64,000 bases of DNA from Alphaproteobacteria bacterium (GCA_965261735.1 OZ253470.1:3168001-3232000); one strand, 5' to 3'. Counted from the stretch's first letter, positions 5,956 through 62,665 are shown. Notes: generated from the letters alone by a model not told the origin. Translations and numbers: made by a program.

Positions 5956-5970
5956 CGCGGCGCCTCCGGT

Positions 5971-10748: not shown

Positions 10749-10754
10749 GACCAT

Positions 10755-21894: not shown

Positions 21895-21928
21895 GAGGGG
21901 ACTCCCTTTTTCGCTCAACCGGCGCCGC

Positions 21929-41587: not shown

Positions 41588-41880
41588 AGGCCATGACCCC
41601 GATTTCACACCCCGGCAGTCTGCTGAAGCGCGAACTCGAGGCGAGGGGTCTGAGCGCCAACAGGCTCGCGCTGGACATCGGCGTTCCGTCCGGCCGCGTG
41701 ACGGACATTCTGAACGGCCGCCGGTCGATCACCGCCGACACGGCGGTGCGTCTCGGCCTCTATTTTGGCAACGGCGCGCTATTCTGGATCGGTCTCCAGA
41801 GCCAGTACGACATCGCTCGGGTCGAACGGGAGCGCGGAGCCGAGATCGCTGAACGCGTGCGACCCGCCGACGCCGCGTAA
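41584..41880 (+). CDS. higA: HigA antitoxin (XRE HTH)
   Basis: HPGSLLK.EL...ILNGRRSITADTAVRL..YFG...FWIGLQSQYD. Confidence 0.92.
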   Translation: MKAMTPISHPGSLLKRELEARGLSANRLALDIGVPSGRVTDILNGRRSITADTAVRLGLYFGNGALFWIGLQSQYDIARVERERGAEIAERVRPADAA

Positions 41881-45901: not shown

Positions 45902-46283
45902 ACCTGTTGACATCCTTTTTGAAGTTGGCGCTTGCATTCGCTGGGAGGCCTGTGTTTGAGTGTGGCCCACCTGAGCCTTCGGGAACAGGGATATAAGAGG
46001 AATGAGAAATTCGTCGGGCTGGGAGCGCCAAGCTTGGTAGCTCCGCGTCTGGGTCCGAAGCTGGATCACAGTGGGACCACTCGGAAGGATCACTCAGAAT
46101 CCGAGTTTGCTTTATCGGTGAAGTGGCCCACGCGGCAACATCATTTTCCTGTATCGACACAGTGGAGATCGTTCGATAAGCTAGTGGACGTACGGTTGAC
46201 GCTGTACTAAGTTTGACATCATATTGAAGTGTAATGAGGGCCTCGTCTCGGGGCCACTTCTGCGCAAAAGGAGAGCCTCGAAG

Positions 46284-48143
46284 ATGGTTACACAGAAAAA
46301 CTTGATCACGCTGTGCTTCGCGACCGTGTTCGCGCTCGGACTCGCGGCGTGCAGCAGCAGCGACGACGGCAGCACGGCCGACGCGCCGACAGGGACCACC
46401 CCGACAGGGACCACCCCGACCACCCCGCCCGCGGCCTCGCCCGTGGAAGTCATGATGGCCCTGACATTGGGGGCGGCGGAGCAAATGGCGCTCCGGGCGG
46501 TGCTGGGAAAGACCGGCGATTCGGACATGTTGCAGATCGCGGCGGGCGAGTCCGAGACCCGGGCGGGTGTGCCGTTCTCCTGCGAGAGCGCCTATCCCTG
46601 CACGGTCACCCTCACCAACAATCTCGGCGTGATCCTGGCCTCGGTGATGACCTACAAGCTGCCGGACGCCGACGACCCGATGGTCACGGCGATGATCCCC
46701 CTGCCGATGGACCCGCTCCACCCGCGCTATACGCTGAATGCGTCGAATGCGGCGAGTGTCCAAGCCATCATCGACGTGGCGTTTGAGGCAGAGGTCACTT
46801 CCGGCACGCCGCCCACACCCGAAGGTGCCCGCGACAATGCGAGCACCACGATAGGCGGTCTGGATATTGCCGGCTTCGGCGTCCACGACATGAGCAAGAC
46901 GACGCTGACCAGCTCTTTTGACCCGAATGTGGCGGACCATATGCCTGTGGACGGCGAAACTGCGGCAATGGGCGGCTCCACGCTGGCGGTTTCGGACAAC
47001 CCGAAAACCGAAACAATCGACGAAAGCACCGTTGTCACGCTGCACGCGGACAAGACCGCCCTGCCGGGTTGGGCTCACAGCAAGGTGCTCTTCGCCGACT
47101 GGGGTGACAGCCAGACGCCGGACAGAGACGGCGGCTACGAGACGGCAGCGCTGCTCTACTCGAGCCATGAAGGGCCTACGCCCCAACCGCTCGACGACAA
47201 GCTGGCGGCCAAGCTCGCCAACCGCGGGGCGTGGTTCATGTTCACCGCCATGCAAGACTTCGATATGGACGGTACTGCGAACCAGAACGTGATCGCGGTG
47301 GCGGCGTCGGGCGACACTGTTGCTGATCAACGGAAGGGCATGATGGTGACTGTCGAGGCACCGCAGCTCTCGACGCTGGCTACCACGCTACAGGGTATGA
47401 GTCGGCACAAAGGGACCTATTTCGGCGCGCCGGTTACCCTCAAGTGCGGCGGCATGGATTGCACCGTAGCCAGGGCAGAAACCCAGGACACGGCGTTCAC
47501 GGTCACCGGTGGCGCATGGCAGATCCTGCCCGACGCCGGAGCGATGATCATGGTTCCCGATCAGGACTACATGGTCTTCGGCGCATGGCTGACCGTGCCG
47601 GATGACATGTCTGGCGAGCACCGGATCGGCGTGTTCCATGACGGCATGCAGAACTACGGGGACGTCGACGAGGCGCTGACGGGCAAGGCCAAGTACGAGG
47701 GCGGCGCGGCTGGCGTCTATCGTGACCGGACTGCCTCCGGGATGTTCACGGCCCGCGCCGTGCTGGAAGCCAATTTTGGCACCGACATGCTGTCGGGCCG
47801 GATCGACAACTTCGCGAACAGCGCCGGCGTCTACTTGGGTACAGACACAGCCCGCTCCCCCAACGATCCGGCAACGGGCGGGGAGAACGATTGGGTCGTG
47901 ACCCTGATGAGCAGCGCAATCGGCACCGGCGGAGTAGTTGCCGATAACACCATGGTCTCCGGCTCTGCCGATGGCGTGGAATGGGCCAGCGGCCAGTGGG
48001 AGGCCACGTTCTACGGGCCGCCCCTCGACGCGGGAGCCCCGACGGAGCCCAGCGGCGTGGCCGGACAGTTCCGGGCGACGTCCGCAATGCGCGGCGTCGT
48101 AGGTGCGTTCGGCGCGCAATATCAGGCGCCCGCGGCCAACTGA
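46284..48143 (+). CDS. surface lipoprotein 1 with C-terminal TbpB-like beta-barrel (putative Slam cargo)
   Basis: Lipobox LAAC; barrel motifs AKYEGGAAG, FTARAVLEANFG, WEATFYG, GVAGQF, VGAFGA. Confidence 0.8.
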   Translation: MVTQKNLITLCFATVFALGLAACSSSDDGSTADAPTGTTPTGTTPTTPPAASPVEVMMALTLGAAEQMALRAVLGKTGDSDMLQIAAGESETRAGVPFSCESAYPCTVTLTNNLGVILASVMTYKLPDADDPMVTAMIPLPMDPLHPRYTLNASNAASVQAIIDVAFEAEVTSGTPPTPEGARDNASTTIGGLDIAGFGVHDMSKTTLTSSFDPNVADHMPVDGETAAMGGSTLAVSDNPKTETIDESTVVTLHADKTALPGWAHSKVLFADWGDSQTPDRDGGYETAALLYSSHEGPTPQPLDDKLAAKLANRGAWFMFTAMQDFDMDGTANQNVIAVAASGDTVADQRKGMMVTVEAPQLSTLATTLQGMSRHKGTYFGAPVTLKCGGMDCTVARAETQDTAFTVTGGAWQILPDAGAMIMVPDQDYMVFGAWLTVPDDMSGEHRIGVFHDGMQNYGDVDEALTGKAKYEGGAAGVYRDRTASGMFTARAVLEANFGTDMLSGRIDNFANSAGVYLGTDTARSPNDPATGGENDWVVTLMSSAIGTGGVVADNTMVSGSADGVEWASGQWEATFYGPPLDAGAPTEPSGVAGQFRATSAMRGVVGAFGAQYQAPAAN

Positions 48144-48168
48144 CCCGGTAACGTGGGTCCAACGATCT

Positions 48169-48197
48169 GGGGCGGCCCTCGGGCCGCCCCTATTTTT
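48169..48197 (+). terminator. intrinsic terminator
   Basis: GGGGCGGCCC-TC-GGGCCGCCCC-TATTTTT. Confidence 0.8.
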
Positions 48198-48221
48198 CCC
48201 GACCCGGTTCCAGGCCGTCCA

Positions 48222-48370
48222 ATGAAGTCCTTTCCGCATCGGCGCCTGTTTCGCAAGGGCACGATGGCGGTCGACTCCGCAATGCGGACTCCCGACGAGG
48301 ACGAGCGCGAGGCGAAGCTCGACGAAGCCATAGCCGCCTTCCACGCCATCCTGATCCAGCGCCCCGAGCC
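48222..48370 (+). pseudogene. Slam N-terminal remnant
   Basis: LFRKGTMAVDSAMRTPDEDEREAKLDEAIAAFHAILIQRP aligns with LFKDGMVAVEQATRQSDEARRDALLDKAIAVFHKMLVAQP of the 50126 Slam. Confidence 0.75.
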
Positions 48371-48430
48371 ACGCGCCGGCGCACCCGGCGCGAAGATCGA
48401 ATACGCATCTGGCGAGAATGGAGGAATACG

Positions 48431-50041
48431 ATGAAGAGCAAACTGATAATGGCGGCGGTGATCGTCGGATCGTTCGCGCTCGCCGGCTGCAGCGGCGGCG
48501 GCGGCAACGACACGGCGGAGATGATGTCGACCGATCCGGCGCCGCCGACCGAAGAAGAGGAGCGGATCGCCGAGCTCGAAGAGGACCTCGAAGACGCCCA
48601 GGAAGAGGCCGACGAAGCAAACCGGCTGCGCCAGGCGGCCGAGGCGGATGCCCGGCAAGCGGAGGCGGATCGCCAGCGGCTCGAGGGCGAGGCCGAGGCG
48701 CGCCGGAGGGCGGATGCCGCGGCCGACACCCGGAGGGTGATCGTGGGGCTGAACGCCGGCAACGATGGCGAACTTACCCTGGTCGTCGATCTCCCTAACC
48801 TCAAACATGGCGCGCCGGCGCCCGTAACCGCGCCGACCGGGCCATTCACGACGACGACGAGCAGATCGGGACAATGGTCGAAGACGGCGCACACCGCCAG
48901 CACCGGTGATATGCGTGACATGGTGGAAGTCTACTCCGATGTGGAAGCGCCGACGTCCGTTCCGTTCAAGGACAGTATCTACAATGACGACAATGCCGTT
49001 GTGAATGCGGAGGGCATGGTGCTTCCAGGCGGATTCGAATTGGAAACCGCAAACCGAGATGACGTTGCGTCGGGCTCGTTTGATCGCACGAGCGCGCTAG
49101 CCAAGTCTTTCGATATGATGGATCGTGGGGAACACACGACTGCGCAGCAAAGGACCGAAGCGATCAATTTAGCGCAGACCGCTTTGGATAACGATCCAAC
49201 TAACGCTGACAGAAGAGAAGAGCTTGAGACTGCCAGGGCATCGAGGGTCCGCGACACGGATCGCCATCCTTACCGCTGGACCGCCGAAGCGGGGGGCCGC
49301 CTGGGCGGTGCGTCAGGCACATTCCGGTGCGGCACTATGAATTCTGTGGCGGACACCTCGTGCACCGTACAGAACACCGGCGGCGGCTTTCTCTTTGTCG
49401 GGCCGTGGCGTTTCGTTCCGTCAAGCGGCACAGTTGGCGTCAGGGTTGAAGATTCCGAGCACATGTGGTTCGGGTGGTGGGCTCGGCAGACTGTGGAGCA
49501 TGAAGATCCGGCCCATCCAACCGACGACTGGGCGTTCGAGATGGGCCATGGCGGGAATGCTGCGACGACCTTTATCGGGGCCACCGGCACGGCGACCTAT
49601 CAAGGCCAGGCTGCCGGGCGGTACGCGGTCTTCGAGCCAGCCACGGGAGAGTCCAGCCATGGCAGCTTCACCGCCTCCGCGCGCCTGGAGGCCAACTTCG
49701 GCACCGCCACGGATTGGGGTACTGTCTCCGGGACGATCACGGGGTTCAGCAACGATCCGGACTGGTCACTGGCCCTGAAGCAGGCGGACATCGACCCCTC
49801 TGGCGGGACCGTCGGGCTGGGTTCCACAGCTGACGCGGATGGCGTCACCTGGTCGATCGACGGCGTTCCCGACGATAGCGGACAGTGGGAGGCGGGCTTC
49901 TACTCGAATCTGCCAACAGGTACGACCGGGCTCGCACAGGTTCAGCCGCACGGGATCGCCGGCACGTTCGAGGCCCAGTATGACGGTTCCGGGGTAGGCC
50001 CGACGGCCGCGATGATCGGAGCCTTCGGGGCGCACAGGTAG
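48431..50041 (+). CDS. surface lipoprotein 2 with coiled-coil stalk and TbpB-like barrel (putative Slam cargo)
   Basis: Lipobox LAGC then SGGGG; charged coiled coil; ATYQGQAAG, FTASARLEANFG, WEAGFY, GIAGTF, IGAFGA. Confidence 0.8.
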   Translation: MKSKLIMAAVIVGSFALAGCSGGGGNDTAEMMSTDPAPPTEEEERIAELEEDLEDAQEEADEANRLRQAAEADARQAEADRQRLEGEAEARRRADAAADTRRVIVGLNAGNDGELTLVVDLPNLKHGAPAPVTAPTGPFTTTTSRSGQWSKTAHTASTGDMRDMVEVYSDVEAPTSVPFKDSIYNDDNAVVNAEGMVLPGGFELETANRDDVASGSFDRTSALAKSFDMMDRGEHTTAQQRTEAINLAQTALDNDPTNADRREELETARASRVRDTDRHPYRWTAEAGGRLGGASGTFRCGTMNSVADTSCTVQNTGGGFLFVGPWRFVPSSGTVGVRVEDSEHMWFGWWARQTVEHEDPAHPTDDWAFEMGHGGNAATTFIGATGTATYQGQAAGRYAVFEPATGESSHGSFTASARLEANFGTATDWGTVSGTITGFSNDPDWSLALKQADIDPSGGTVGLGSTADADGVTWSIDGVPDDSGQWEAGFYSNLPTGTTGLAQVQPHGIAGTFEAQYDGSGVGPTAAMIGAFGAHR

Positions 50042-50070
50042 TAGCTCATAGCAGCGAGCCGAGTATCACC

Positions 50071-50107
50071 GGGGCGGCGGCGAGAGCCGCTGCCCCTTCT
50101 CTTTCTT
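50071..50107 (+). terminator. terminator-like hairpin between cargo and Slam
   Basis: GGGGCGGCGGC-GAGA-GCCGCTGCCCC-TTCTCTTTCTT. Confidence 0.7.
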
Positions 50108-50125
50108 CGCCGAAACGCATTCCGC

Positions 50126-51442
50126 ATGAACAAAATCCACGCTGCACCGGTCGTGGGCAAAATTCGTCCACTTGCCCCGGGACTGTTCCTTGCCCTGATC
50201 CTTCTGTTCGCCCCTCCGGCCGCCGCACAGGACATGCGCGCGCTGTTCAAGGACGGCATGGTCGCCGTCGAGCAGGCGACCCGGCAGTCCGACGAAGCCC
50301 GCCGCGACGCGCTGCTCGACAAGGCGATCGCCGTCTTCCACAAGATGCTGGTGGCGCAACCCGGGCTGGTCCGCGTCCGCCTCGAGCTCGCCCGCGCGTT
50401 CTTCCTCAAGGGCGAGGACAAGCTGGCGACGCGGCATTTCGAGCAGGTGCTGGCCGGCAATCCGCCCGCCGGGGTGGCGCTCAACGTCAACCGGTTCCTC
50501 AACCTGATGCGCGCGCGCAAGCGCTGGAGCCTGAACCTCGGCATGGCGCTCGCCCCCGACACCAATATCGGCGCCGGCTCGGACGAACGGATCATCTATA
50601 TCGACGTCGGGGGCCAGCTATTGCCCTTCCGCCGCGACGCCGACGAGCTCACCACCTCCGGCATCGGCGTCTCCGCCTGGCTGGGCGGGGAGTACCAGTA
50701 CCCGCTGGGCGAACTCGGAGCGGGGTCCGGGGCAAGCCCCTGGCGGTTGCGCGCCGGCGGCAATCTGTCGCGCAGGGAATACCGGGAGAGCCAGTTCGAC
50801 CAGATGACGCTGACCGGCCATGTCGGGCCGCGCTGGCTGATCGGCCGGACCAGCGAGGCGAGCCTGCTGCTGAGCGGGCTGCATCACTGGACCGGATCGG
50901 GGATCGAGCAGCCCTCGCATCACGATATCGGCTTCCGCGTCGAGGGACGCCACCGGATGGGCCCGCGGACGACGCTGAACGCGCGGCTGTCGTGGCACCG
51001 CCGGAAATACGTCGAGCAGGAGGGTCGCGACGGGCCGATCGCCGATATCTCGGTGGGCGCGGGCTGGCTGGCGTCGCAGACGCTGCGCATCGACGCGAGC
51101 CTCGGCTGGGGGCGCGAGCGGACCGAGACGGAGCGCTGGCGCAACTCACGCCGCTCGGTGCGGCTCGGCGCGACGGCGGTGCTGCCCTGGGGCTTCACCG
51201 TCGGCGGCTCGGGCGCGCTGCGCTGGACCGCGTATGAGGGCAACTGGGCCCCCTTCGTGCCGGACGGCGGGGAGCGCAGCGACCTGACCCGCACCATCCG
51301 CCTGTTCGCGCATAACCGGGCGCTGACCCTCGAAGGGTTCAGCCCGCAGATCTCGGTGACCCAGGAACAGCGCACCACCAACGCCCAGCTCCACGACTAC
51401 GAGCGCATCTCCGGCGAGCTCCGCTTCGTCCGCCTGTTCTGA
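50126..51442 (+). CDS. Slam / DUF560 surface lipoprotein assembly modifier (type XI secretion)
   Basis: Signal peptide; TPR RVRLELARAFF; barrel beginning W.....LAPDTNI; C-terminal SN-type motif TNAQLHDY.R and terminal F. Confidence 0.85.
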   Translation: MNKIHAAPVVGKIRPLAPGLFLALILLFAPPAAAQDMRALFKDGMVAVEQATRQSDEARRDALLDKAIAVFHKMLVAQPGLVRVRLELARAFFLKGEDKLATRHFEQVLAGNPPAGVALNVNRFLNLMRARKRWSLNLGMALAPDTNIGAGSDERIIYIDVGGQLLPFRRDADELTTSGIGVSAWLGGEYQYPLGELGAGSGASPWRLRAGGNLSRREYRESQFDQMTLTGHVGPRWLIGRTSEASLLLSGLHHWTGSGIEQPSHHDIGFRVEGRHRMGPRTTLNARLSWHRRKYVEQEGRDGPIADISVGAGWLASQTLRIDASLGWGRERTETERWRNSRRSVRLGATAVLPWGFTVGGSGALRWTAYEGNWAPFVPDGGERSDLTRTIRLFAHNRALTLEGFSPQISVTQEQRTTNAQLHDYERISGELRFVRLF

Positions 51443-51459
51443 GGGGGGGGTCCGACGAT

Positions 51460-51482
51460 GCGCCCCGGATCGAGTCCGGGGC
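51460..51482. repeat. REP-like palindrome
   Basis: GCCCCGGA-TCGAG-TCCGGGGC. Confidence 0.45.
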
Positions 51483-51569
51483 TACTCGGGATAAGGGGGG
51501 CGGGCGTTCCTCGGGGCAGGCTCCGCGGCGCATTGAAGGGCTTGCGGCGTGCCGGGTCCCCAACTCGAA

Positions 51570-52126
51570 GGCATACGCATTCTGGGCAAGGGCCGGCGCG
51601 ATCGCGAACTGCCGCTGTGGAAGGAAACGAAGGCTGTTCTCAATGAGTGGCTCGACGTCCGGCCGCCGGTCAACAACCGCTACCTCTTCCTCAACGCACG
51701 GGGACGGGTGATGAGCCCGGACGGCTTCGCGTACATCCTCAGCCAGCATGTCGCCAGGGCTATGCTGGCGGTTCCATCGCTCAAGACCAAGCGGGTAACC
51801 CCGCATGTAATCCGTCACTCGACCGCAATGACGATCCTGCATGCCACCGGGGACGTCCGGAAGGTCTCGATCTGGCTCGGCCACGCAGACCTCAAGACCA
51901 CCGAAGTGTACCTCCATGCCAGCCCGGCCGAGAAACTGGAAATCCTTGCGGTCAACGCGCCGCCATCGATCCGGCCCGGGGCCTTCCCTGGTGCAAAGGA
52001 CAGTCTGATGAGCATCCTCGGCGGCAAGTGACGACACAGGATTAATGCCGAGTGAATCTGTCGAAAATCCGCGTAGATCCGCAGATTCCTGGAGGTCACT
52101 CGGCATTAAACACTTCTCGGCATTAC
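51570..52126 (+). mobile_element. RIT-type element remnant 1: integrase C-terminus plus terminal repeats
   Basis: ILGKGRRDRELPLW...TPHVIRHS...WLGHADLKTTEVY; inverted repeat TTAATGCCGAGTGA 52042-52055 / 52096-52109; third copy CTCGGCATTA 52116-52125. Confidence 0.75.
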
Positions 52127-52276
52127 CGTAAAGGATGCCGGCCGACTTGGCCTTCGCGCATCTTGCGCGCTCTGCCTTGCGCCGCTTTTCGCCGCAGTGC
52201 CGGCACAAGGTGCGGTCGGGCGCGGGCCTCGCCTTCCCGCACCTCGGACAAAGCCCGCTGGTAATGCGGTCGGCGG
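52127..52276 (-). pseudogene. fragment of a CxxC zinc-ribbon protein
   Basis: GLCPRCGKARPAPDRTLCRHCGEKRR, cut by the IS3 on one side and the RIT end on the other. Confidence 0.5.
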
Positions 52277-52333
52277 TGTCCGTCGTCAAAACATTTGGGA
52301 CTGTTGAGTCTGTTTCATAAGGGAGGATCTGGC

Positions 52334-53329
52334 TCATCTTGGATTGATGTAAGCCGCTTGTTGTTGATGGTTCAAGCGGCGGTGTTGGATAGTCAGTTTC
52401 TTGATCCTGTTCCTCCTTTCAATGATGGCGGTATCGCGCCCGAAGTAGGCATCGGCGGGGGTTACATTCGCGAGGCTCTCGTGGTAGCGGCGGTTGTTGT
52501 AGTGATCGACGAAAGCGCCGATCTGGTTTTCGAGATCGCCTGGTAGATAATAGTTTTCCAGCAGGATCCAGTTCTTCAGCGTTTGATGCCAGCGCTCGAT
52601 CTTGCCCTGGGTTTGCGGGTGATACGGTGCGCCCCGAACGTGATCCATACCGTGGTCCTCGAGCCATTCCGCGAGATCACCGGAGATATAGGACGAGCCG
52701 TTGTCGCTGAGCAGCCTCGGCTTGTGGACGACATTGGCGCGGTTGCAGCCTGAGGCTTCTAGCGCCAACTTCAGTGTTGCCGTCACATCGTCCGCCGTCA
52801 TGTTGGTGCAGAGCTTCCAAGCAATGATGTAGCGGGAATAGTCGTCCAGGATGGTCGACAGGTAAAACCAGCCCCAGCCGATGACCTTGAGATAGGTGAA
52901 GTCGGTCTGCCACAGCTGGTTCGGCGCCGTGGTCTTGTCGCGGAACTCATCGGCTGCCTTGATGACCACGAAAGCGGGGCTGGTGATCAGGTCGTGGGCC
53001 TTGAGAAGCCGGCAAACCGAGGCTTCCGAGACAAAATAGCCCCTGGTGTCCGTAAACCTGACGGCCAGTTCCCGGGGCGACAGTTGCGTCTCCTCCAGGG
53101 CAAGATCGATGATCTGCCCCCGGACATCATCCGGGATACGGTTCCACACCCGGCCTGGGCTGCTGTTGCGATCCTCAAGACCGGCGTCGCCAAAGGCCAG
53201 AAAGCGATCGTACCAGCGATAAAAGGTGGTCTTCGGAATGCCCAGCTTGTCCAAAGTGGACCCGACGCCCAGGTGGGACTGCTCGACCAGGCGAATGATC
53301 TCCAGCTTCTCGGATGCGGGATACCTCAT
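52334..53329 (-). CDS. IS3-family transposase OrfB
   Basis: DDE motifs WQTDFT, SDNG, QGKIERW. Confidence 0.9.
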   Translation of the reverse strand: MRYPASEKLEIIRLVEQSHLGVGSTLDKLGIPKTTFYRWYDRFLAFGDAGLEDRNSSPGRVWNRIPDDVRGQIIDLALEETQLSPRELAVRFTDTRGYFVSEASVCRLLKAHDLITSPAFVVIKAADEFRDKTTAPNQLWQTDFTYLKVIGWGWFYLSTILDDYSRYIIAWKLCTNMTADDVTATLKLALEASGCNRANVVHKPRLLSDNGSSYISGDLAEWLEDHGMDHVRGAPYHPQTQGKIERWHQTLKNWILLENYYLPGDLENQIGAFVDHYNNRRYHESLANVTPADAYFGRDTAIIERRNRIKKLTIQHRRLNHQQQAAYINPR

Positions 53330-53610
53330 TCCTCGTCTCCCCCATCCGCGATCATGCTTTTTTTGAAAAGCCGGTTCTCCAGCGAAAGTTCGGCGACCAA
53401 CTCCTTCAAGTCGCGCATCTCCTGGCGCAGAACTTTAACCTCGCCCGAGGTCGCTTGGCGCCCGGTGTCGCCGGCGAGCCGCTTCTTGCCCGCTTCCAAA
53501 AACTCTTTCGACCAGCTGTAATACAGACCCTCGGCGATGCCCTCGCGGCGGCACAAGGCGGCGATGCTCTCCTCGCCGCGCAGGCCCGACACCACAATCC
53601 GGATCTTCTC

Positions 53611-55004
53611 GGCTGTGTCTCGAAAGTGGTGGAAATTTGAGGATGGCGTAATCTCCGGGTGACAAGACAACCACCCAATCGGCGGCTAGCACCGCCAAGG
53701 AGATCACGCCATGAAGAACACTACCGAGACTTCCGCGCTTTCGCTACTGGCCAATGACGCCGGCTATGATCCGATCGAGGACCGGCTGCGGGAGAACATC
53801 AGATCCACGATCGAGGCCGTTTTTGAGGAGGAACTTGCGCAGTTTCTCGGGCGCTGCCGATACGGTCGAGAGGACGCGCTTCGGCAAGGGTATCGGAACG
53901 GGCACCGGGAGCGGCAACTGACGGGGACATTCGGGACCGAGAGGGTGAGCGTGCCGCGTGCGCGGATCGTTGAGGAAGACGGTCGGGCGTCGGAATGGCG
54001 TTCGCGGGCGCTGCCGCGCTACCAGCGGCTGACCAGAAAGGCCGAGGCGCTGATCGCTTCGGTGTATCTGTCCGGAACCAACACGCGGCGGGTGAAACGC
54101 GCGCTGTTCGGGCTCTTCCGGGGTGCTGTGAGCAAGGACGTTGTGAGCCGGGCGTGGCGCAAGGTGAAGGTCGATTGGGACGCCTGGTGCAGCCGTGGCC
54201 TCGCGGATGAGGATATCGTTCGGCTGATCCTTGACGGCACTGTGATCAAGACCCGACTGGACCGCAAGGCCACCAACATCTCGGTTCTCGCGGCTATAGG
54301 GGTGCGCCGGGATGGCCAGAAGGTCTTGCTTTCGATCGGGAATATGGGCGGAGAAAGCCAGGCGGCGTGGCGCCAGTTCCTCGACGACCTTGATGCGCGT
54401 GGACTGAAACGGCCCGGGTTTGTCATCGTCGATGGCGCGCCGGGACTGGAGGCGGCTCTGTCGGCGCTTTGGGGCGATGACCTTCCCGTTCAACGCTGCA
54501 CCGTGCACAAGCACCGCAACCTTCTGGGTCATGCTCCCAAACACATGCATGACGAGCTGAGCGAAGATTACCGCGATATGATCTATGCCGACACTGCCTC
54601 CGAGGTGGAAACCCGCCGCAAGGCGTTTGTCCGCAAGTGGCGGCTGAAATGCAGGGCCGTCGCGGACAGCCTCGCAGAAGCGGGCGACAAGCTCTTTACC
54701 TTCACGCGCCTGTCCAAGAGCCAATGGAAATCAGCCCGAACGACCAACGCCATTGAGCGTCTCAACGAGGAGTTCAAGCGCCGGATCAAAACACAGACCG
54801 TGCTGCCGTGTCCCGAAACAGTGCCGATGCTCCTCTGGGCACTCCTCGCTTCCGGCCAAATCCAGATGCGCAAAGTCGATGGATGGGAAACCCTCGATCA
54901 GCTAATCGCCGACGAAACCCTTGACCGCGCAGCCTGACCGCCGCAAAACTCAACCCGCTCGGAGAGGCGCCAAAACCAATTTCCACCACTTTCGAGACAC
55001 AACC
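53611..55004 (+). mobile_element. IS256-family element
   Basis: Inverted repeat GG(C/T)TGTGTCTCGAAAGTGGTGGAAATT; 8-bp target duplication ATCTTCTC at 53603-53610 and 55005-55012. Confidence 0.95.
53711..54937 (+). CDS. IS256-family transposase
   Basis: YRNGHRER, LILDG, VDGAPGL, QRCTVH, TTNAIERLN. Confidence 0.95.
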   Translation: MKNTTETSALSLLANDAGYDPIEDRLRENIRSTIEAVFEEELAQFLGRCRYGREDALRQGYRNGHRERQLTGTFGTERVSVPRARIVEEDGRASEWRSRALPRYQRLTRKAEALIASVYLSGTNTRRVKRALFGLFRGAVSKDVVSRAWRKVKVDWDAWCSRGLADEDIVRLILDGTVIKTRLDRKATNISVLAAIGVRRDGQKVLLSIGNMGGESQAAWRQFLDDLDARGLKRPGFVIVDGAPGLEAALSALWGDDLPVQRCTVHKHRNLLGHAPKHMHDELSEDYRDMIYADTASEVETRRKAFVRKWRLKCRAVADSLAEAGDKLFTFTRLSKSQWKSARTTNAIERLNEEFKRRIKTQTVLPCPETVPMLLWALLASGQIQMRKVDGWETLDQLIADETLDRAA

Positions 55005-55189
55005 ATCTTCTCCTCAGCCGAATACTGCTTGCGTGTCTTGCGGCGAATATCCCGAACAGCTCTCTCCGCCGGGTCGTTCTTGCTCATTGATTTCTGTCTC
55101 ATCTTCGTTCCCTTCGGTCACTACGATGAGCCAGAAATCCTCCGTTATGCAATTACCTCAATTTGTCCCAAAGGCGCTGACGTCAGACA

Positions 55190-55672
55190 AGCTGGTCGAC
55201 GGCCGTGCCGCAGGTGACGCTGTCTTCCTCGACAGGCGCCGACAACCGTTCACCCGGTTCGGCGTCTACTAGGTCGTCGAGCGCTGCGCGGCCCAAGTGC
55301 CGGCGTTGGCCGGGAGAAAAATAACGCCCCATGTGCTGAGGCATACGACCGCCTGCCACCTGGTGTTCGCCGGCGTGGACATCAACACTGTGCGTGCGTG
55401 GCTCGGGCATTCCTCCATCGATACCACCAACATCTATGCCGAAATCAACCTCAAGATGAAAGCCGAGGCGATGGCACTGTGCGATGTCGCGGAACCCGCC
55501 CCGGGGCGCCCCTGGAAGGAGGACAAAGACTTGATGGCGTTCCTGAACTCCTATTGAGCACACCAGATTATGTTGCGGCGATCCGAACTCCTTCTCCAGC
55601 AAACTCAAGGAACCGGCGGTAGCTCATCGAAGGATCCGTCAGCGCCGCAACATATGACCCCAGACAGCATAA
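55190..55672 (+). mobile_element. RIT-type element remnant 2: integrase C-terminus with internal TAG plus terminal repeats
   Basis: FTRFGVY*VVERC...TPHVLRHT...DINTVRAWLGH.SIDTTNIYAE; inverted repeat TATGTTGCGGCG 55569-55580 / 55643-55654; CAGCATAA 55665-55672. Confidence 0.75.
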
Positions 55673-55674
55673 GA

Positions 55675-55950
55675 TCCCCAATACTGAATGCCGGAGCCGG
55701 CGATCTTCACGCCGGTGCAGACGATGATCTCGTCCCGCTCGGGCCGCATCCGCTGCACGGCCCCGAGCGACATGACCTGGCGCGGTTGCTTGCGGGTCTT
55801 CGACTTGCCCTTGCCGGGCCAACGGACGATCTCGCCGTCGAACGTCGACTTGTACCGCTCCACCACATAGCGGTTATCGTCGAGACCGCGCCTGAACATA
55901 TGGATAAGAAAGGTGCGCGCGTTGGCGCCGGGCGCCGTGACTGTCTGCAT
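55675..55950 (-). pseudogene. hypothetical ORF cut by the RIT end
   Basis: MQTVTAPGANARTF... follows GGAGG and runs into the RIT repeats. Confidence 0.35.
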
Positions 55951-56193
55951 GATGCCGCCTCCCCTGGGATCGGTAGTTGCGAGCGGCGGGGACGCTCTCC
56001 GGGCCATCCATCCGCCGCCCTGCTCCCGGCCAGCCTCGGCCTCTTCATGGCGCGCCGGCGTGAAAGTGGCTTGTGATGGGGACATGGCGCAACGCAGGCC
56101 AGCTGCCCTGGCGCCCAGAGTCGGCACGGGTCTGTAATATATTCGGAGATTCCGAGTATACTAGGGGCGCAAGGTGATTTTATATTTTGGGCC

Positions 56194-56697
56194 ATGTCAG
56201 AGTCAGCGCTCATATTCGACACTCACGAGGACATCCAGGAACTGGTGAAGTCCGGCATGCCGGAACCCCAGGCTGAAACCGTGGTGCGTCAGCGTGTCCG
56301 GCTGCTGGAACGCAACCTCGCCACCAAGGCTGATATCGCAGCAACCAACGCCGATATCGAGACGCTGCGGTTGGAGACCAAGGCTGATATTGCAGCAACC
56401 AACGCCAATATCGAGACGCTGCGGCAGGAGACCAAGGCCGATATCGCGGCAACCAACGCCAATATCGAGACGCTGCGGCAGGAGACCAAGGCCGATATCG
56501 CGGCAACCAACGCCAATATCGAGACGCTGCGGCAGGAGACCAAGGCCGATATCGCGGCAACCAACGCCAATATCGAGACGCTGCGGCAGGAGACCGAAAA
56601 GCTGATAGCTCTCGGCAAGAACGATATTATCAAGTGGGTTGTCGGCGCCAATCTCGGGGTCGCCGCCTTGATCGTGGCCGCAATCAAACTCCTCTAA
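56194..56697 (+). CDS. DUF1640/CCDC90-like membrane-anchored coiled-coil protein
   Basis: Head FDTH...ELVKSGMPEPQAE; neck LATKADI; repeat stalk; C-terminal TM IKWVVGANLGVAALIVAAIKLL. Confidence 0.8.
   Translation: MSESALIFDTHEDIQELVKSGMPEPQAETVVRQRVRLLERNLATKADIAATNADIETLRLETKADIAATNANIETLRQETKADIAATNANIETLRQETKADIAATNANIETLRQETKADIAATNANIETLRQETEKLIALGKNDIIKWVVGANLGVAALIVAAIKLL
56323..56592 (+). repeat. 54-bp tandem repeat, five copies
   Basis: Unit encodes TKADIAATNANIETLRQE; the last three copies are identical. Confidence 0.95.
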
Positions 56698-56716
56698 TCG
56701 CCGGCCTGGATCACGC

Positions 56717-56895
56717 TCAGTCAGCATCCAGCGTGGCGCCCGCGGGCAGTATGTCCGCGCCGATGCTGGCGGCGACCCTGACCGCCGATAGCTTGATGGA
56801 ATCGCGCGCGAGATGGGCGTAGCGGACCGTCGTCTGGATTTTGGTGTGCCCGAGCAGCTTCCCGATCATGCTCAGGCTCTCGCCGAGCGCCAGGG
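56717..56895 (-). pseudogene. tyrosine integrase extreme C-terminal fragment
   Basis: LALGESLSMIGKLLGHTKIQTTVRYAHLARDS; paralogous to the 40725 fragment. Confidence 0.8.
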
Positions 56896-57151
56896 TACCA
56901 CGATGAGGCCTCCAGACCCCAACACGACCTCCACAAGATATGGTTGAAAAACGCCTCGCGGGCGACCAAGCCAAACCGGTGCCGTCGACAGCGCCTCTGG
57001 CTGGATCGATGTCGAAACCACCCTGGGCGGGGCGCCACGACCGGCACACCAAACGCGCCCAGCCCAAAAAGAACATCCGGCTCCGGCCCCTCAGAAAGAC
57101 CGGAAGCGAATTCTCAATCAGTGAATCTACGCCGCGACCGGCGGGTTCGAG

Positions 57152-58738
57152 ATGACTGCCTCAGTCAAATTGGGGGCGTGCCCGCCGCAGACTCGCGCCT
57201 CTCTACACGGCACCACCAAATCTGGACCCGAACGGCCGCTGACGAATTCCGACGACAAACGCGCGCCCGGAGGCGGCGGCGGTTCGATGACCAGCATGAT
57301 GGACGGCAATGGTGGGCCCCCTGGAGAGCCGCCTGCGCCGGGCCCGGCGTGTGCCACATCGGCAACGTCTCAGGCTTGCGTGGACGACAAGAAGATGGTC
57401 ATGGACGAGGCCAAGAAGGCGCTCGACGCTGCGAAGGCCGACGAGAACTCGACCCAGAAGCAGATCGCGGACGCTCAGAAGGCGTATGACGACGCCAAGA
57501 TGGCGCACATGACCGCGATGGAGGGCCGGGCCACGTACCTCGCCATGCAGGCGCCGATGTACGACATGAAGGCCATGGCCAAGGCGATCATGACACCGGG
57601 CGATACTGATCCTGTTGTGATTGATGGCGGCATGCCGCCGATGGGCGACAAGGCTTATGCCAAGGCGACATGGCCGGTCGGCGACGTGGCCGGCTTCGCA
57701 GAGGCCGTTTATGAGGACGCTTCAGAGGGCACGGCCATCATCACCCACACCAACAAGCAGGCCGCGAAGGGAGTAACCTACAAGAAGCTGCTGATGCCCA
57801 ACACCGCTCCTAACGCCCCGGCCGGGTATATCTATATGACCCGCGCGGCCATGGGGATTGATGGCGATTCCTTAGCCGGTGTGCTCACGCTGTTGGAGAA
57901 CGTGCCGCCGACTGCGATGATCTCGTTCGCCCATGATGCCGGCATCGGCGCGGTGAGGACGTTCAGTGACGTTGATGCCACCACCGATGTGGATGAAAGC
58001 GTGGTGTCGATTATGGGCACCTTCCACGGTGTGCAGGGGACCTATGCATGCGGCACTGCGGGGGAACAAAACAATGCATGCATGGCAGGTACCGATGAGA
58101 AGGGTGAGCTTATCACGCTCAGTGCAGATTGGACCTTCACGCCAGCCAAGGGGGCGGAGGCCGGAATCATCGCCGGCGCACAGACGGACGTCGAATACCT
58201 CGACTTCGGCTATTGGGTGACCACTTCAGACGATCCGACATCGTATTCGGTGGGCATGTTCGCCAAGGGCATGGGAACAATGAGTACCGGCAATTTTGGT
58301 ATTCTCACCGGTGACCAGGACGCAGCAATCTCGGCAACCTACAAGGGCGGCGCCGCTGGTCTGTACGCGAAACGTGAGTACAGCGGCACCAGCGATGGTG
58401 ACTTGCTTGGCGCAGGCCGCTTCACGGCAACGGCAGAGCTGAAGGCCTACTTCGGCACCGGTGACCACACCGCCAACGACGACCAAAACACGATCAGCGG
58501 CATGATCAGCAGCTTCATGGATGACGGTTCGCCGATCGACGCCACATGGCGGGTGAAACTTGAGGCGCTCGACTTCGACACAGACAACGATGGCTCCTTC
58601 GGAGGAGGCACCGATGATTCATGGTCCGGTCAGTTCTTCGGTGGCAGCGCAACGGCGGCACCAACCGCTGTCACTGGCGAGTTCACGCACGATTTCGACA
58701 ATGGCGAAGTGATCGGCGCGTTCGGGGCGACCCGCTAG
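57152..58738 (+). CDS. surface lipoprotein-like protein 3 with TbpB-like barrel; signal peptide and lipobox missing
   Basis: GGGGGS linker without a preceding Cys; coiled coil; ATYKGGAAG, FTATAELKAYFG, WSGQFFG, AVTGEF, IGAFGA. Confidence 0.7.
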   Translation: MTASVKLGACPPQTRASLHGTTKSGPERPLTNSDDKRAPGGGGGSMTSMMDGNGGPPGEPPAPGPACATSATSQACVDDKKMVMDEAKKALDAAKADENSTQKQIADAQKAYDDAKMAHMTAMEGRATYLAMQAPMYDMKAMAKAIMTPGDTDPVVIDGGMPPMGDKAYAKATWPVGDVAGFAEAVYEDASEGTAIITHTNKQAAKGVTYKKLLMPNTAPNAPAGYIYMTRAAMGIDGDSLAGVLTLLENVPPTAMISFAHDAGIGAVRTFSDVDATTDVDESVVSIMGTFHGVQGTYACGTAGEQNNACMAGTDEKGELITLSADWTFTPAKGAEAGIIAGAQTDVEYLDFGYWVTTSDDPTSYSVGMFAKGMGTMSTGNFGILTGDQDAAISATYKGGAAGLYAKREYSGTSDGDLLGAGRFTATAELKAYFGTGDHTANDDQNTISGMISSFMDDGSPIDATWRVKLEALDFDTDNDGSFGGGTDDSWSGQFFGGSATAAPTAVTGEFTHDFDNGEVIGAFGATR

Positions 58739-58812
58739 GTGGTAGCAGCCTGACCGGACGGGGACGGGTTCCACCTGCAGGTACCCGGCCTCTCCGGCCC
58801 GGCGTTTCAGCG

Positions 58813-58847
58813 AAGGGGGTGGCAGAGATGTCATCCCCTTTTTCTTT
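58813..58847 (+). terminator. intrinsic terminator between cargo and Slam
   Basis: AAGGGGGTGGCA-GAGA-TGTCATCCCCTT-TTTCTTT. Confidence 0.75.
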
Positions 58848-58875
58848 GCATCCGATACCGCCGCACGGATTCATA

Positions 58876-60255
58876 ATGCCGTTCGTCCCGCTCTGCCGCC
58901 TGCTTGCGCTTTGCGCCTGCCTCATGCTTGCCGCCCCGGCCTGGAGCGCCGAGGAACTGTCTGCTCCGGCCTCATCCCCCCAAGTTGGCAGTGTGGCCGA
59001 CGCACGGGCGCTGATCGATGTCGGCCGGTTCATCGACGCGCTGGCGGTGCTGGGCCCGCTGCTCGAGGCGGATGCGATCGAGGCGAACGCGCTCTTCCTC
59101 TACGGCCTGGCAGCGACGGGAGCGTCGCAGAGGCCCGACGTTCCCGACGACGCACGCGAGGCGCTGCTGGACGAGGCCATCGCCGCCTTCCGCGCCATGC
59201 TGGTCAACGCGCCGGGTCTGGTGCGCGTACGGCTGGAGCTTGCGCGCGCCTTCTTTCTCAAGGGCGAGAACGATCTGGCGCGGCGCCACTTCGAGCTTGT
59301 TCTGGCGGGCGAGCCGCCTGCGGAAGTGGCTGCCAAGGTGCGGCGCTTTCTGAACGAGATCAGGGCGCGCAAGCGCTGGAGCTTCAGCGTGAGCTTCGCG
59401 CTTGCGCCGGACAGCAACATCGGCGGCACCTCGGACGAGCGGACCATCTACATCTTCAACCTGCCCTTCCAGAGGGATGCACAGGAGCTGACCACCTCGG
59501 GCGTGGGGGTCTCGGTGTGGGGCGGTGCGGAGTACCAGGTGCCCGTGAGCGACGGTCTGCGCCTCCGCGCCGGCGCGCAGGCGGCGCGGAGGGAGTATAA
59601 GCGCTCCCAGTTCGATCAGCTCTTCCTCGCGGGCCATATGGGGCCGCGCTGGCTTGTGGACCGCAACACGGAGCTGAGTATTCTTGCGAGCGCGCGGCAG
59701 CGCTGGCTCGGCACCGTACCCGATCATCGCGATCTCGGCACCCGTTTCGAGGCGGGGCACCGTGTGAGCCCGCAGGTGACGCTCTTCGCGCAGGCGTCCT
59801 GGCACGGGCGGCGCTACCGCACGCAGGCGCGGTCCCGTCTGGACGGGCCCGTCTGGGACGCGTCGCTGCGCGGGGCGTGGGTCGTCACGCCGACGGTGCG
59901 GGTGGAGCTCTCCGGCGGCTACACGCGGGATCGGCCGCGGCTTCGGTGCGAGCGGAACCGGAGCCGGTGGCTGGGTACGGGGGTGTCCGTGAACCTGCCT
60001 CTGGGCTTCACCGTGGGCGGCGGGGGCGAGGTGAGGTGGACGGACTACGAGTGGGGCTGGTTTCCCTTCGTGTCGGACGGCAGCGCGCGCGAGGACCGCA
60101 CCCTCAGCTTGCGGGCCTCGGTGCACAACCGGGCCTTCACGTTGCTGGGCTTCAGCCCGGAGCTGGTGGTGGTGCAGGAGGAGCGTGAGAGCAACGCGCA
60201 GCTGCATGGCTACGGGCGCACGCGGGGCGAGCTCCGCTTCGTGCAACAGTTCTGA
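58876..60255 (+). CDS. second Slam / DUF560 protein
   Basis: Signal peptide; PGLVRVRLELARAFFLKGE; LAPDSNI; ESNAQLHGY; terminal F; clear paralogue of 50126-51442. Confidence 0.85.
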   Translation: MPFVPLCRLLALCACLMLAAPAWSAEELSAPASSPQVGSVADARALIDVGRFIDALAVLGPLLEADAIEANALFLYGLAATGASQRPDVPDDAREALLDEAIAAFRAMLVNAPGLVRVRLELARAFFLKGENDLARRHFELVLAGEPPAEVAAKVRRFLNEIRARKRWSFSVSFALAPDSNIGGTSDERTIYIFNLPFQRDAQELTTSGVGVSVWGGAEYQVPVSDGLRLRAGAQAARREYKRSQFDQLFLAGHMGPRWLVDRNTELSILASARQRWLGTVPDHRDLGTRFEAGHRVSPQVTLFAQASWHGRRYRTQARSRLDGPVWDASLRGAWVVTPTVRVELSGGYTRDRPRLRCERNRSRWLGTGVSVNLPLGFTVGGGGEVRWTDYEWGWFPFVSDGSAREDRTLSLRASVHNRAFTLLGFSPELVVVQEERESNAQLHGYGRTRGELRFVQQF

Positions 60256-60714: not shown

Positions 60715-62010
60715 GGGAGTATCCGGAATTTTGTGCTTTGGGCCATAGTGATGAAAAAGAAAGGAGCATCCTATGGCAATCGAGAAGGAACTATTGGACC
60801 AGCTGTTGGAGGGGCGTGATCCGGAAACGGTATTCACCCAGGACGGTCTGCTTGACGAGTTGAAGAAAGGGCTGTCGGAACGTGTCCTGAATGCGGAGCT
60901 CGACGCGCATCTCGATGCGGAAACGGCGGATGGAAAAACCAATCGCCATAACGGCCGATCGCAGAAGACGGTCCTCACGGGTACGTCGAAGGTGACGCTG
61001 GATATTCCACGTGACCGGGCCGGCACCTTCGATCCGCAGCTGATCGCTAAATACCAGCGCCGGTTCCCGGACTTCGACGAGAAGATCATCTCCATGTATG
61101 CCCGCGGCATGACGGTCCGCGAGATCCGCGGTCACCTTCAGGAGCTGTACGGTATAGAGGTCTCACCGGACCTGATCTCAACGGTCACCGATGCCGTTCT
61201 CGAGGAGGTGAGCGAATGGCAGAACCGGCCGCTGGATGCCTGCTACGCCATCGTTTTCTTCGACGCCATCCGGGTCAAGATCCGCGACGAGGGGTTCGTT
61301 CGCAACAAGGCGGTGTATATCGCCCTCGCCATTCTTCCCGATGGCACCAAGGAGATCCTCGGTCTGTGGATCGAGCAGACCGAAGGCGCCAAGTTCTGGC
61401 TGCGCGTCATGAATGAGCTCAAGAACCGGGGCGTGCAGGACATCCTGCTCGCCGTCGTCGATGGTCTCAAGGGCTTCCCCGAGGCGATCAACGCCACCTT
61501 CCCCGAGACTGTGGTTCAGACCTGTATCGTCCACCTGATCCGCCATTCCATGAATTTTGCGTCATGGAAGGATCGAAAACATGTGGCCAAGGCGCTCAGG
61601 GACGTATACCGGGCCAAGGACGCCGATGCCGGCCTGGCGGCGCTGGATGCCTTCGAGGCCGGCCCCTGGGGCGAGAAATATTCGGCCATCGCACAGAGCT
61701 GGCGGCGCAACTGGGAACACGTCTCGCCCTTCTTTGTCTTCCCCGAGGCGGTACGCAGGATTGTCTACACCACAAACGCCATCGAGTCGCTCAACGCCAA
61801 GATCCGGCGCGCTGTCCGCACCCGCGGCCACTTCCCCAGTGACGAGGCCGCCTCGAAGTTGTTATATCTCGTTCTCGATCATGCGGCCGAGGCGTGGAAA
61901 CGTCCGCCGCGGGAATGGTTCGAGGCCAAAACACAGTTCGCCGTCATCTTCGGCGAAAGGTTCGTCAATGTCTGACAAAACGGCCCGAGCACAAATCTTC
62001 TGACACTCCC
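60715..62010 (+). mobile_element. IS256-family element (second, distinct type)
   Basis: Ends GGGAGTATCCGGAATTTTGTGC / GCACAAATCTTCTGACACTCCC; 8-bp target duplication CTGCGATC at 60707-60714 and 62011-62018. Confidence 0.95.
60773..61975 (+). CDS. IS256-family transposase
   Basis: IPRDRAGTFDP, VFFDAIRVK, VDGLKGF, QTCIVH, YTTNAIESLN. Confidence 0.95.
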   Translation: MAIEKELLDQLLEGRDPETVFTQDGLLDELKKGLSERVLNAELDAHLDAETADGKTNRHNGRSQKTVLTGTSKVTLDIPRDRAGTFDPQLIAKYQRRFPDFDEKIISMYARGMTVREIRGHLQELYGIEVSPDLISTVTDAVLEEVSEWQNRPLDACYAIVFFDAIRVKIRDEGFVRNKAVYIALAILPDGTKEILGLWIEQTEGAKFWLRVMNELKNRGVQDILLAVVDGLKGFPEAINATFPETVVQTCIVHLIRHSMNFASWKDRKHVAKALRDVYRAKDADAGLAALDAFEAGPWGEKYSAIAQSWRRNWEHVSPFFVFPEAVRRIVYTTNAIESLNAKIRRAVRTRGHFPSDEAASKLLYLVLDHAAEAWKRPPREWFEAKTQFAVIFGERFVNV

Positions 62011-62052: not shown

Positions 62053-62400
62053 TCAACCTTTGAGAAGCCGGATCAACATATGGCGAACATGGTCCTGCCC
62101 GCCGAAGAACACCGCCAGAACCCGTACTGTCTGACGTGCGTCATCAATATCGAACCAATAGATCGCCCGGTCGATCGTCAGATGCCTCAGACCCGGCAGG
62201 ATATTGGCGTGGCTTTCGCCGCGATATGGGGCGGCCAGAATGCGTTCCGCAGTCTCTCGAACGTCCAGAACCCGCGCTTCGGCATGGTCAAGCGCCGCCT
62301 CCACACTCTCGCCGAAGCTCCGGTAGCTCTCGAAGAGATGGTCGAAGATCAGCTCGAAATCACGCTCGGCTTCGACCGAAAACTCAAGACGAAAGGCCAT
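62053..62400 (-). CDS. ParE/RelE-family toxin
   Basis: FSVEAERDFELIFDHL...PYRG...PGLRHL...VRVLAVFFGGQD. Confidence 0.85.
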   Translation of the reverse strand: MAFRLEFSVEAERDFELIFDHLFESYRSFGESVEAALDHAEARVLDVRETAERILAAPYRGESHANILPGLRHLTIDRAIYWFDIDDARQTVRVLAVFFGGQDHVRHMLIRLLKG

Positions 62401-62665
62401 GCGCGCGGCGCTTCGCGGCGATCAACTCGGCCAGCTGGCCGCCCATCCGCGCCGCGCTGACGAATTTGCCTTCCCGGCGCCGGGCCAGAACCTCACGCAG
62501 TGCCTCGCGTTCCAGTTCTTCGGCGTCCATCCGTCCACGAAGCAGGTCAATGCCCTGTTGCAACACGGCGCTGACGCTGGAATAGCGCCCGGCCTCCACC
62601 AGCGCCCTGGCAAAGGCGTGTTGCTCGTCCGTGAGCGAGACCGAAGACTTGATAGTCATAGGCAT
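62384..62665 (-). CDS. ParD-like ribbon-helix-helix antitoxin
   Basis: SSVSLTDEQHAFARALVEAGRYSSVSAVLQQG; overlaps the toxin start. Confidence 0.85.
   Translation of the reverse strand: MPMTIKSSVSLTDEQHAFARALVEAGRYSSVSAVLQQGIDLLRGRMDAEELEREALREVLARRREGKFVSAARMGGQLAELIAAKRRAHGLSS

Follow-up and report, generated by a model that had tools for sequence, protein, structure and literature searches.

The closest described systems to the locus reported here are those built around Slam (DUF560) proteins. In Neisseria they are represented by Slam1 and Slam2 (with the cargos TbpB, LbpB, fHbp and HpuA), where a DUF560 protein is encoded beside a lipoprotein that ends in a handle and a barrel. An 8-stranded barrel is common to the predicted Slam-dependent lipoproteins, and of 185 Slam clusters 65 have no receptor gene and nine contain several lipoproteins (PMC5449769). 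In the NilB/NilC and HrpB/HrpC systems of Xenorhabdus the cargo gene likewise adjoins a DUF560 gene, and these systems are horizontally acquired and linked to host association (PMC8406197, PMC12282271). Grossman et al. (2025; PMC12282271) described an effector-pedestal-barrel architecture and a link of type 11 secretion to transposases and mobile islands, analysing network clusters 1 and 3; in the main text, Alphaproteobacteria, Rhodospirillales and tandem cassettes have no occurrence (0 each), and no mention of a hairpin between cargo and Slam was found in the parts examined.

Here we describe a locus of this kind in an Alphaproteobacteria bacterium (GCA_965261735.1), contained in a stretch of 64,000 nucleotides (OZ253470.1:3168001-3232000) that we call the window and to which all coordinates refer. 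Between positions 46284 and 60255, on the plus strand, the order of cargo gene, hairpin and Slam gene (or what is left of one) occurs three times, and all three units were located where an earlier note on this DNA had placed them. The cargos are a 619-aa lipoprotein (cargo 1, 46284-48143), a 536-aa lipoprotein (cargo 2, 48431-50041) and a 528-aa open reading frame (ORF) without a lipoprotein signal peptide (cargo 3, 57152-58738). In our reading, to which we give a probability of roughly 80%, these are Slam (type 11 secretion) surface-lipoprotein cassettes in three states of preservation, set in a decayed island and probably tuned by hairpins. The gene adjacency resembles that of hpuA-Slam2 (PMC5449769), and the three-part layout, alpha-helical N-terminal effectors and co-occurrence with transposases or islands are shared with the architectures of Grossman et al. 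Compared with the Neisseria Slam systems, the window has no TonB-dependent receptor partner (and so differs from the bipartite TbpBA, LbpBA and HpuAB systems, where the receptor is adjacent), cargo 2 has a 69-residue helical stalk, the host belongs to an uncultured alphaproteobacterial lineage, the N-terminal domains of the cargos match no known family, and sequence similarity to solved cargos is undetectable. The cargo families also differ from those of Xenorhabdus.

Both long downstream proteins belong to the Slam/DUF560 family, as the earlier note had claimed. Slam 1 (50126-51442; 438 aa, with a signal peptide and a short TPR region) and Slam 2 (58876-60255; 459 aa) are DUF560 outer-membrane proteins that match Pfam PF04575 (SlipAM/DUF560) with 50.2 and 66.9 bits, respectively, against a cut-off of 22, and the Slam 2 match spans profile positions 1-288 of 288. 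Matches to PF24575 (TPR_Slam; 21.7 and 22.4 bits) fall under its cut-off of 35.2, and Slam 2 has weak Pfam matches to TPR_19 and TPR_16. The N-terminal end of Slam 1 is ~40 residues shorter than that of Slam 2. A longer ORF for Slam 2 (58621-60255) takes in 255 nt upstream of the preferred start at 58876, and the alignment to the Slam of a related locus, L061, starts at residue 1 of the protein that begins there. Among 8,000 scored candidates, 2,730 Slam relatives were found at E ≤ 0.001; the best relative of Slam 1 is 97% identical, and several relatives, from metagenome-assembled genomes (MAGs) labelled Defluviicoccus or Rhodospirillales, bear the name 'surface lipoprotein assembly modifier'.

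The three cargos can be aligned only along their last ~240 residues, a module that is 29-39% identical at the protein level and contains, in all three, the motifs Y.G.AAG, FTA.A.L.A.FG and GAFGA, a Cys pair, W..P and FG.W. That such motifs would be joined to unrelated N-terminal halves had been noticed before, and clustering agrees with it: when 89 N-terminal regions of at least 80 aa, taken from 90 cargo ORFs, were grouped into 24 clusters, those of the three window cargos fell into three different ones. Independent evidence for the module comes from the three-way alignment and from BLAST matches to the C-terminal parts of cargos in other loci. A profile of the module, built from an alignment of the cargo C-terminal part (A2), finds no other ORF of at least 100 aa in the window. 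Among 1.84 billion proteins it matches 5,084 representatives (of clusters at 50% identity) at E ≤ 0.001, of which 2,025 score E ≤ 1e-30; almost all of the 150 matches listed have the module at the C-terminus, in proteins of 300-1,600 aa. Searches of the ESM Atlas with the N-terminal parts of cargo 2 and cargo 1 gave no usable match, and none of the N-terminal domains received a functional assignment.

Structure models of cargos 1 and 2 point to the fold of known Slam cargos. AlphaFold2 models, computed from alignments of 81 sequences for cargo 2 and 36 for cargo 1, reached a mean predicted local distance difference test score (pLDDT) of 89.4 and 77.4, respectively, and both end, by DSSP, in eight long strands that follow a beta-rich handle. 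Foldseek comparison with the PDB placed fHbp first for cargo 2 (E about 1e-5), followed by hemophilin, HpuA, HphA and the C-terminal domain of NHBA; for cargo 1 the top matches were HpuA, hemophilin, TbpB, fHbp, LbpB and NHBA. All of these listed top matches are known Slam-type lipoproteins or haemophores, with E-values of about 1e-5 to 1e-3. In these models, cargos 1 and 2 have a handle and then a TbpB/fHbp-type barrel of eight strands, and such a barrel had been predicted in the earlier note for all three cargos. Such whole-model searches are dominated by the C-terminal module and are therefore uninformative on the N-terminal parts. In the cargo 2 model a 69-residue helix leads into a mixed beta/alpha domain, the handle and the barrel; coming after the anchor, this helix would hold the rest of the protein off the membrane.

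The three units are not equally well preserved. Cargo 2 and Slam 1 are the only pair to have stayed whole; cargo 1 has no Slam of its own and Slam 2 lies beside a disabled cargo, so that the three working cassettes originally envisaged are reduced to one. The remnant that had been recognized in place of the first Slam is a 70-codon ORF (48222-48434, +), of which residues 7-48 (42 residues) match residues 38-79 of Slam 1 with 50% identity (E 6e-12); since it lacks both a signal peptide and a barrel it is regarded as a leftover of a Slam gene, and its stop codon overlaps the start of cargo 2 (ATGA). Full-length homologues of the cargo 1 type in four related loci (L059, L050, L041 and L021) are each followed immediately by a Slam gene, and cargo 1 is an orphan because its own Slam was deleted, leaving the remnant. 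Lipoboxes, which were read by eye, are present at the end of the signal peptides of cargo 1 (...LGLAAC) and cargo 2 (...FALAGC). Cargo 3 starts with MTASVKLGAC..., without a hydrophobic core, and none of the upstream frames encodes a signal peptide. Its three homologues in L061 begin ...RAFLPIAALAAVALAVSACGGGGG and have a full signal peptide and lipobox ahead of GGGGG; the residues that precede GGGGG in cargo 3 are unrelated to these homologues and non-hydrophobic, and an integrase fragment on the opposite strand lies directly 5' of the gene. Judging from this comparison, cargo 3 was probably truncated at its 5' end at a rearrangement junction and is probably not exported; with its signal peptide and lipobox context lost, Slam 2 is left without a working neighbour cargo.

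Related loci were collected in a scan of one genome per species, which gave 467 pattern matches, 410 of them encoding a Slam relative. The best 80 of the matches yielded 75 loci from 48 assemblies (counted by accession prefix), 16 of which contributed more than one of these best 75 loci. Most loci come from MAGs labelled Alphaproteobacteria, Rhodospirillales or Defluviicoccus, in keeping with the alphaproteobacterial setting assumed from the start; the few other labels (Acidobacteriota, Chloroflexota, Gammaproteobacteria and Binatia) may reflect binning error or gene transfer. The dxs protein of the window is 71% identical to that of one such MAG. By the Slam and module profiles, the loci contain 83 full Slam ORFs, 76 of them with at least 1.5 kb of upstream sequence. 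A count of pairs in relatives, suggested in the earlier note as a check, gave a cargo directly upstream and on the same strand for 53 of these 76. At least two cargo modules are found in 23 of the 75 loci, at least two full Slams in 10 and Slam fragments in 11, and no Slam follows 27 of the 83 checkable cargos (locus counts being slightly inflated, because L001/L002, L010/L013 and L062/L064 overlap on contigs). None of the cargo-Slam pairs in a comparison of 55 pairs is duplicated. The cargo-Slam arrangement, with several cargos or Slams per locus, is thus ordinary for this clade.

The larger neighbours of these Slams were examined as a set of 89 ORFs of at least 550 aa within 10 kb of a Slam, filtered by GC content at third codon positions (GC3) and with cargo and Slam matches excluded (one ORF is counted twice, as two loci overlap). 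By Pfam, they include TrwC relaxases in seven loci, the TrwB coupling protein in one, IS66 transposases in three and other transposases or recombinases in two, as well as 13 further proteins with PF01298 (TbpB_B_D) above its cut-off. Other large proteins (588-1055 aa), which end in a Pfam TbpB_B_D domain, form a second set near cargo-Slam pairs in L007, L008, L012, L013, L026, L032, L036, L039, L049, L051, L052 and L065; the module profile missed this set, and the cargo counts per locus are therefore underestimates. Other features of the related loci may be recorded here. L061 contains, at 3801-9594, three tandem, near-identical lipoprotein genes of the cargo 3 type followed by a single Slam, i.e. 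one translocon with recently amplified cargo. A cargo-Slam pair lies beside dxs (3-5 kb from the Slam) in L009, L011, L014 and L017, which looks like a conserved chromosomal position; the dxs gene of the window (19972-21951) has no adjoining Slam. Genes for large subunits that bind molybdopterin, similar to those of xanthine dehydrogenase or to CoxL, recur within 10 kb of Slams in six loci (L001/L002, L016, L023, L028, L047 and L075).

A second recurrent feature is the hairpin between cargo and Slam. The stops of the first two cargos are followed by GC-rich, terminator-like hairpins with a T-run: hairpin 1 (48169-48190, +) has nine GC pairs and then TATTTTT, and hairpin 2 (50071-50096, +) has 11 pairs (10 GC) and a T-rich tail. 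The weaker hairpin 3 (58812-58841, +; 13 pairs, 6 GC) was listed by the terminator tool and fails a stricter rule, which asks for a stem of at least six pairs (at least four GC) and then a T-run within 100 nt past the cargo stop. Under this rule, 23 of 53 related pairs have a terminator-like site between cargo and Slam, compared with 0/51 in the 100 nt past Slam stops and 0/53 in 100 nt of mid-cargo sequence. In L041 and L050, hairpins nearly identical to hairpin 1 come after the genes of the cargo 1 type. A terminator scan of the 15.7-kb region gave 12 sites where 10.1 are expected, so that the count alone is not significant; it is the placement that recurs. A sigma-70-like promoter match (9/12 hexamer matches, consensus only) lies upstream of cargo 1 at 46196-46225 (+), in a region with five such sites seen against 2.4 expected. 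Between cargo 2 and Slam 1 the spacer is 84 nt, and hairpin 2 ends 30 nt ahead of the Slam 1 start; this leaves little room for a separate promoter, and Slam 1 would therefore most simply be transcribed by read-through. Internal terminators set the ratio of binding protein to transporter in ABC-importer operons (PMC9045158), where the hairpin likewise lies between an abundant extracytoplasmic component and a membrane translocator. By this analogy, the hairpin is most likely a partial terminator or a stabilizer of the 3' end. A literature search found, among its ten best matches, no paper that joins DUF560/Slam with a terminator or hairpin, which does not prove that there is none.

Taken with what homology suggests about export, surface display and hairpin function, the intact unit would work as follows. 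The cargo would be made with a lipoprotein signal peptide and passed to the cell surface by the adjacent Slam barrel, which would recognize the shared module of handle and 8-stranded barrel, leaving the variable N-terminal part to do a cargo-specific job. The hairpin would allow much cargo transcript and little Slam transcript. Cargo 1 would reach the surface only via Slam 1 or another Slam acting in trans.

The units are not recent copies of one another. At the DNA level the two Slam genes are 74% identical along 243 nt, and the cargo genes have no repeat in common that is longer than 46 nt (72-76% identical), values at odds with the readily exchangeable units that had been imagined. A recent tandem duplication was considered and rejected, as the two Slam proteins are 52% identical and each is nearer to Slams of other genomes; the units are better seen as old diverged paralogues or separate acquisitions, to go by these sequence comparisons. 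Within the loci retrieved, the nearest Slam to Slam 1 is in L001 (77%) and the nearest to Slam 2 is in L061 (74%). Specifically, the nearest Slams to Slam 1 are found in L001, L007, L008 and L012, all with cargo-2-type genes, and that to Slam 2 in the locus with cargo-3-type genes, so that cargo and Slam tend to travel together. Median identity across pairs is 33% for cargos and 58% for Slams, i.e. the cargos diverge faster.

A number of results weigh against the reading of the locus as Slam cassettes with barrel-tagged cargos and a hairpin. At the level of sequence, whole cargos have no Pfam match at E 0.01, PF01298 (TbpB_B_D) included, so that the profile checks proposed earlier came out positive for DUF560 in both Slams and negative for the cargo domain; in favour of the reading, a precomputed PF01298 assignment is present on nine of 120 cargo 2 relatives among the matches listed. 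With a cut-off of 80 bits, the NCBIfam model NF041636 (slam_lipo) scores cargo 2 at 29.4 and cargo 1 at 20.4, and it does not match cargo 3. The scores of the module profile for cargo 1 (E 1.8e-52), cargo 2 (E 1.1e-90) and cargo 3 (E 1.7e-39) are partly circular, because these three proteins are themselves rows of the A2 alignment. Searched against the PDB, the profile finds no chain by sequence (best E 0.26), and phmmer with cargo 2 returns only chance-level matches (best E 0.55); a sequence link between the module and solved cargos was therefore dropped as evidence either way. The Foldseek TM-scores are modest (0.17-0.24 normalized by query, 0.2-0.6 by target), as the similarity is confined to the C-terminal half, and cargo 3 is placed in the presumptive handle-barrel group by the homology of its module. 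Among the related loci, 23 of the 76 Slams have no upstream cargo by the module profile. Co-variation of cargo module and Slam is weak (Mantel r 0.146 over 55 pairs, a value reached by 0/999 permutations), the cargo of the nearest Slam is among the three nearest cargos in only 17 of 55 cases, and strict cargo-Slam co-evolution was set aside on this weak signal. Finally, the folding z-scores, which in themselves speak for the hairpin, being below -2 in 39/53 cargo-Slam gaps as against 5/51 post-Slam and 4/53 mid-cargo segments, and which reach -2.4 in the 100 nt after the cargo 3 stop, come from shuffles that kept mononucleotide content only.

The surroundings of the cassettes contain mobile-element debris throughout, as expected of a mobile island, and what is seen is a decayed, insertion sequence (IS)-ridden integrative patchwork, not an evidently active element. 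The window is GC-rich (62-69%) and carries housekeeping genes, including dxs, ispA, aroC and fabI, up to ~40 kb; from 40.6 kb on, GC is lower (59-63%). This latter region contains a fragment of a single-stranded DNA-binding protein (SSB) and four tyrosine-recombinase fragments: one at 40656-41117, a C-terminal part at 51549-52031 (+; PF00589 E 2.5e-17, profile positions 56-170 of 172), one at 55297-55557 (+; PF00589 E 2.7e-12) and a probable one at 56717-57076 (-; PF00589 weak, E 0.0085). The last abuts the 5' end of cargo 3, and 147 nt of it are 71% complementary to the integrase fragment at 40926-41072. Slam 1 is separated from cargo 3 by 5.7 kb of such debris. Within it, an IS256-family insertion sequence (53611-55004, +; Transposase_mut E 9.8e-72), with 27-nt terminal inverted repeats that are 96% complementary, is nested in an IS3-family element (52334-53670, -; orfB 52334-53329 and orfA 53326-53670, with rve, helix-turn-helix (HTH) and HTH_Tnp_1 domains): it cuts the 5' end of the latter, and its left repeat lies inside orfA. 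A further IS256-family transposase is encoded at 60773-61975 (+; Transposase_mut E 1.8e-142), and this copy differs from that at 53711-54937. A composite transposon was rejected, as the cassettes are not bordered by long direct repeats and the IS256-family transposases are two distinct proteins (408 and 400 aa); no tRNA gene that could mark an integration site was found in the window.

Several smaller features of the window were also noted. Two toxin-antitoxin pairs flank the Slam region, at 41300-41880 and 62053-62665; they consist of a HigB-like toxin with an HTH antitoxin (HigB/HigA) and of a ParD-like antitoxin with a weak ParE-like toxin. A 167-aa coiled-coil protein (56194-56697; Pfam CCDC90-like/DUF1640, E 1.9e-12) contains 18-residue repeats encoded by five tandem 54-nt repeats (56323-56649), four of which are 93-100% identical. 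Outside the island, an AcrB-type pump gene is split into 25478-26653 (profile 2-297) and 27075-28343 (profile 633-1020) with its middle missing, and a fragment of an IS1-like transposase (9867-10754; weak Pfam match, E 1.7e-6) lies among housekeeping genes, so that the IS load is not confined to the island.

Upstream of the cassettes, and outside the coordinates given for them, 42727-45354 (+) encodes a probable lipoprotein with a poly-proline linker, an S8 subtilase domain (PF00082 E 1.4e-27) and a C-terminal domain of ~330 aa ending in ...GWRHSF. The poly-proline stretch is ~70 residues long, and 12-nt DNA repeats are found at 42829-43068. In Neisseria, the Slam-type lipoproteins LbpB and NHBA are shed from the cell by NalP, an autotransporter that is itself lipidated and has a subtilase domain (PMC5472700). 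The protein resembles NalP in being a probable S8 lipoprotein with a long C-terminal domain that ends in an aromatic residue and in lying near Slam cargos, and by this analogy it may be a NalP-like sheddase companion, for which it is a candidate. It differs from NalP in that an autotransporter beta-domain was not detected. Specifically, its C-terminal 334 aa have no Pfam match even at E 10, and its assignment as an autotransporter was rejected, given the absence of PF03797 and an hhalign probability of 0.7% against the PF03797-bearing protein of L072; it is not filed as NalP-type because its C-terminal domain matches no autotransporter family. S8 homologues on the same strand and within 10 kb of a Slam are present in five of the 75 loci (L067, L023, L019, L020 and L006).

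With regard to what the cargos do, an unlikely alternative to our reading is that they are nutrient scavengers (for a metal, haem or a vitamin) that pass what they bind to a TonB-dependent receptor whose gene lies in another part of the genome. HpuA, hemophilin, HphA, TbpB and LbpB are among the best structural matches, and a TonB-dependent receptor is present in 120 of 185 Slam-lipoprotein clusters (PMC5449769); these structural matches lie in the shared handle-barrel module and are therefore silent on the ligand. No such receptor is encoded in the window, as had been said of it before, every ORF of more than 600 aa being something else by Pfam. Nor is there one among the 89 ORFs near Slams (0/89), a set that shorter or broken receptors would escape, and the textbook iron-piracy role is therefore probably inapplicable. 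The window also contains no match, at three mismatches or fewer, to the Fur-box or ICE-box motifs. The missing receptor genes and iron boxes argue against a classical role in metal piracy, though a receptor may be encoded elsewhere; the role in host interaction that had been put forward instead is a guess.

Quite unlikely, in our view, is that the locus is a gene graveyard in which the leftovers of a dead mobile element persist and none is functional. The Slam remnant, the missing signal peptide of cargo 3, the four integrase fragments, the nested insertion sequences and the SSB fragment would all fit such an account, and the split AcrB gene shows that pseudogenes occur in this genome. Set beside their homologues, however, cargos 1 and 2 and the two Slam genes have their full length, the proteins are conserved at 78-97% identity in close relatives, and GC3 values of 0.81 for cargo 1, 0.75 for cargo 2, 0.91 for Slam 1 and 0.83 for Slam 2 (the last computed on the longer ORF 58621-60255) indicate a strong third-position bias. 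Highly improbable is a system of recombinational variation, in which the silent or partial cargos 1 and 3 would donate segments to the expressed copy via the 3' module. All three cargos do have this module in common, and one copy lacks its start region in the manner of a silent cassette; yet the modules have diverged at the protein level to the extent given above, the 46-nt repeat at 72-76% DNA identity is too low for homologous exchange, and each cargo type has full-length orthologues with a Slam of their own in other genomes.

Slam systems, barrel-tagged cargos, multi-cargo loci and a link to mobile elements are already in print; what is added here is scale, together with regularities that recur in a lineage where Slam systems seem to be undescribed. 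Worth following are the recurrent hairpin, the receptor-free neighbourhoods of the Slams and their relaxase and subtilase neighbours. More tentatively, and with doubts of our own, these could be parts of a large, receptor-independent surface-coat system of this lineage with many cassettes in each genome, conjugative or integrative spread, a conserved terminator that fixes a high ratio of cargo to Slam and a co-located NalP-like subtilase for shedding; thousands of cargo families would then share one export module, and the window would be a snapshot of cassette turnover, with one cassette intact, one orphaned and one decapitated. If the hairpin does set the ratio of cargo to Slam, this would be a simple rule, useful for reconstituting Slam-dependent display, and the shared module could serve as a search handle for the surface proteins of uncultured symbiont-like bacteria.

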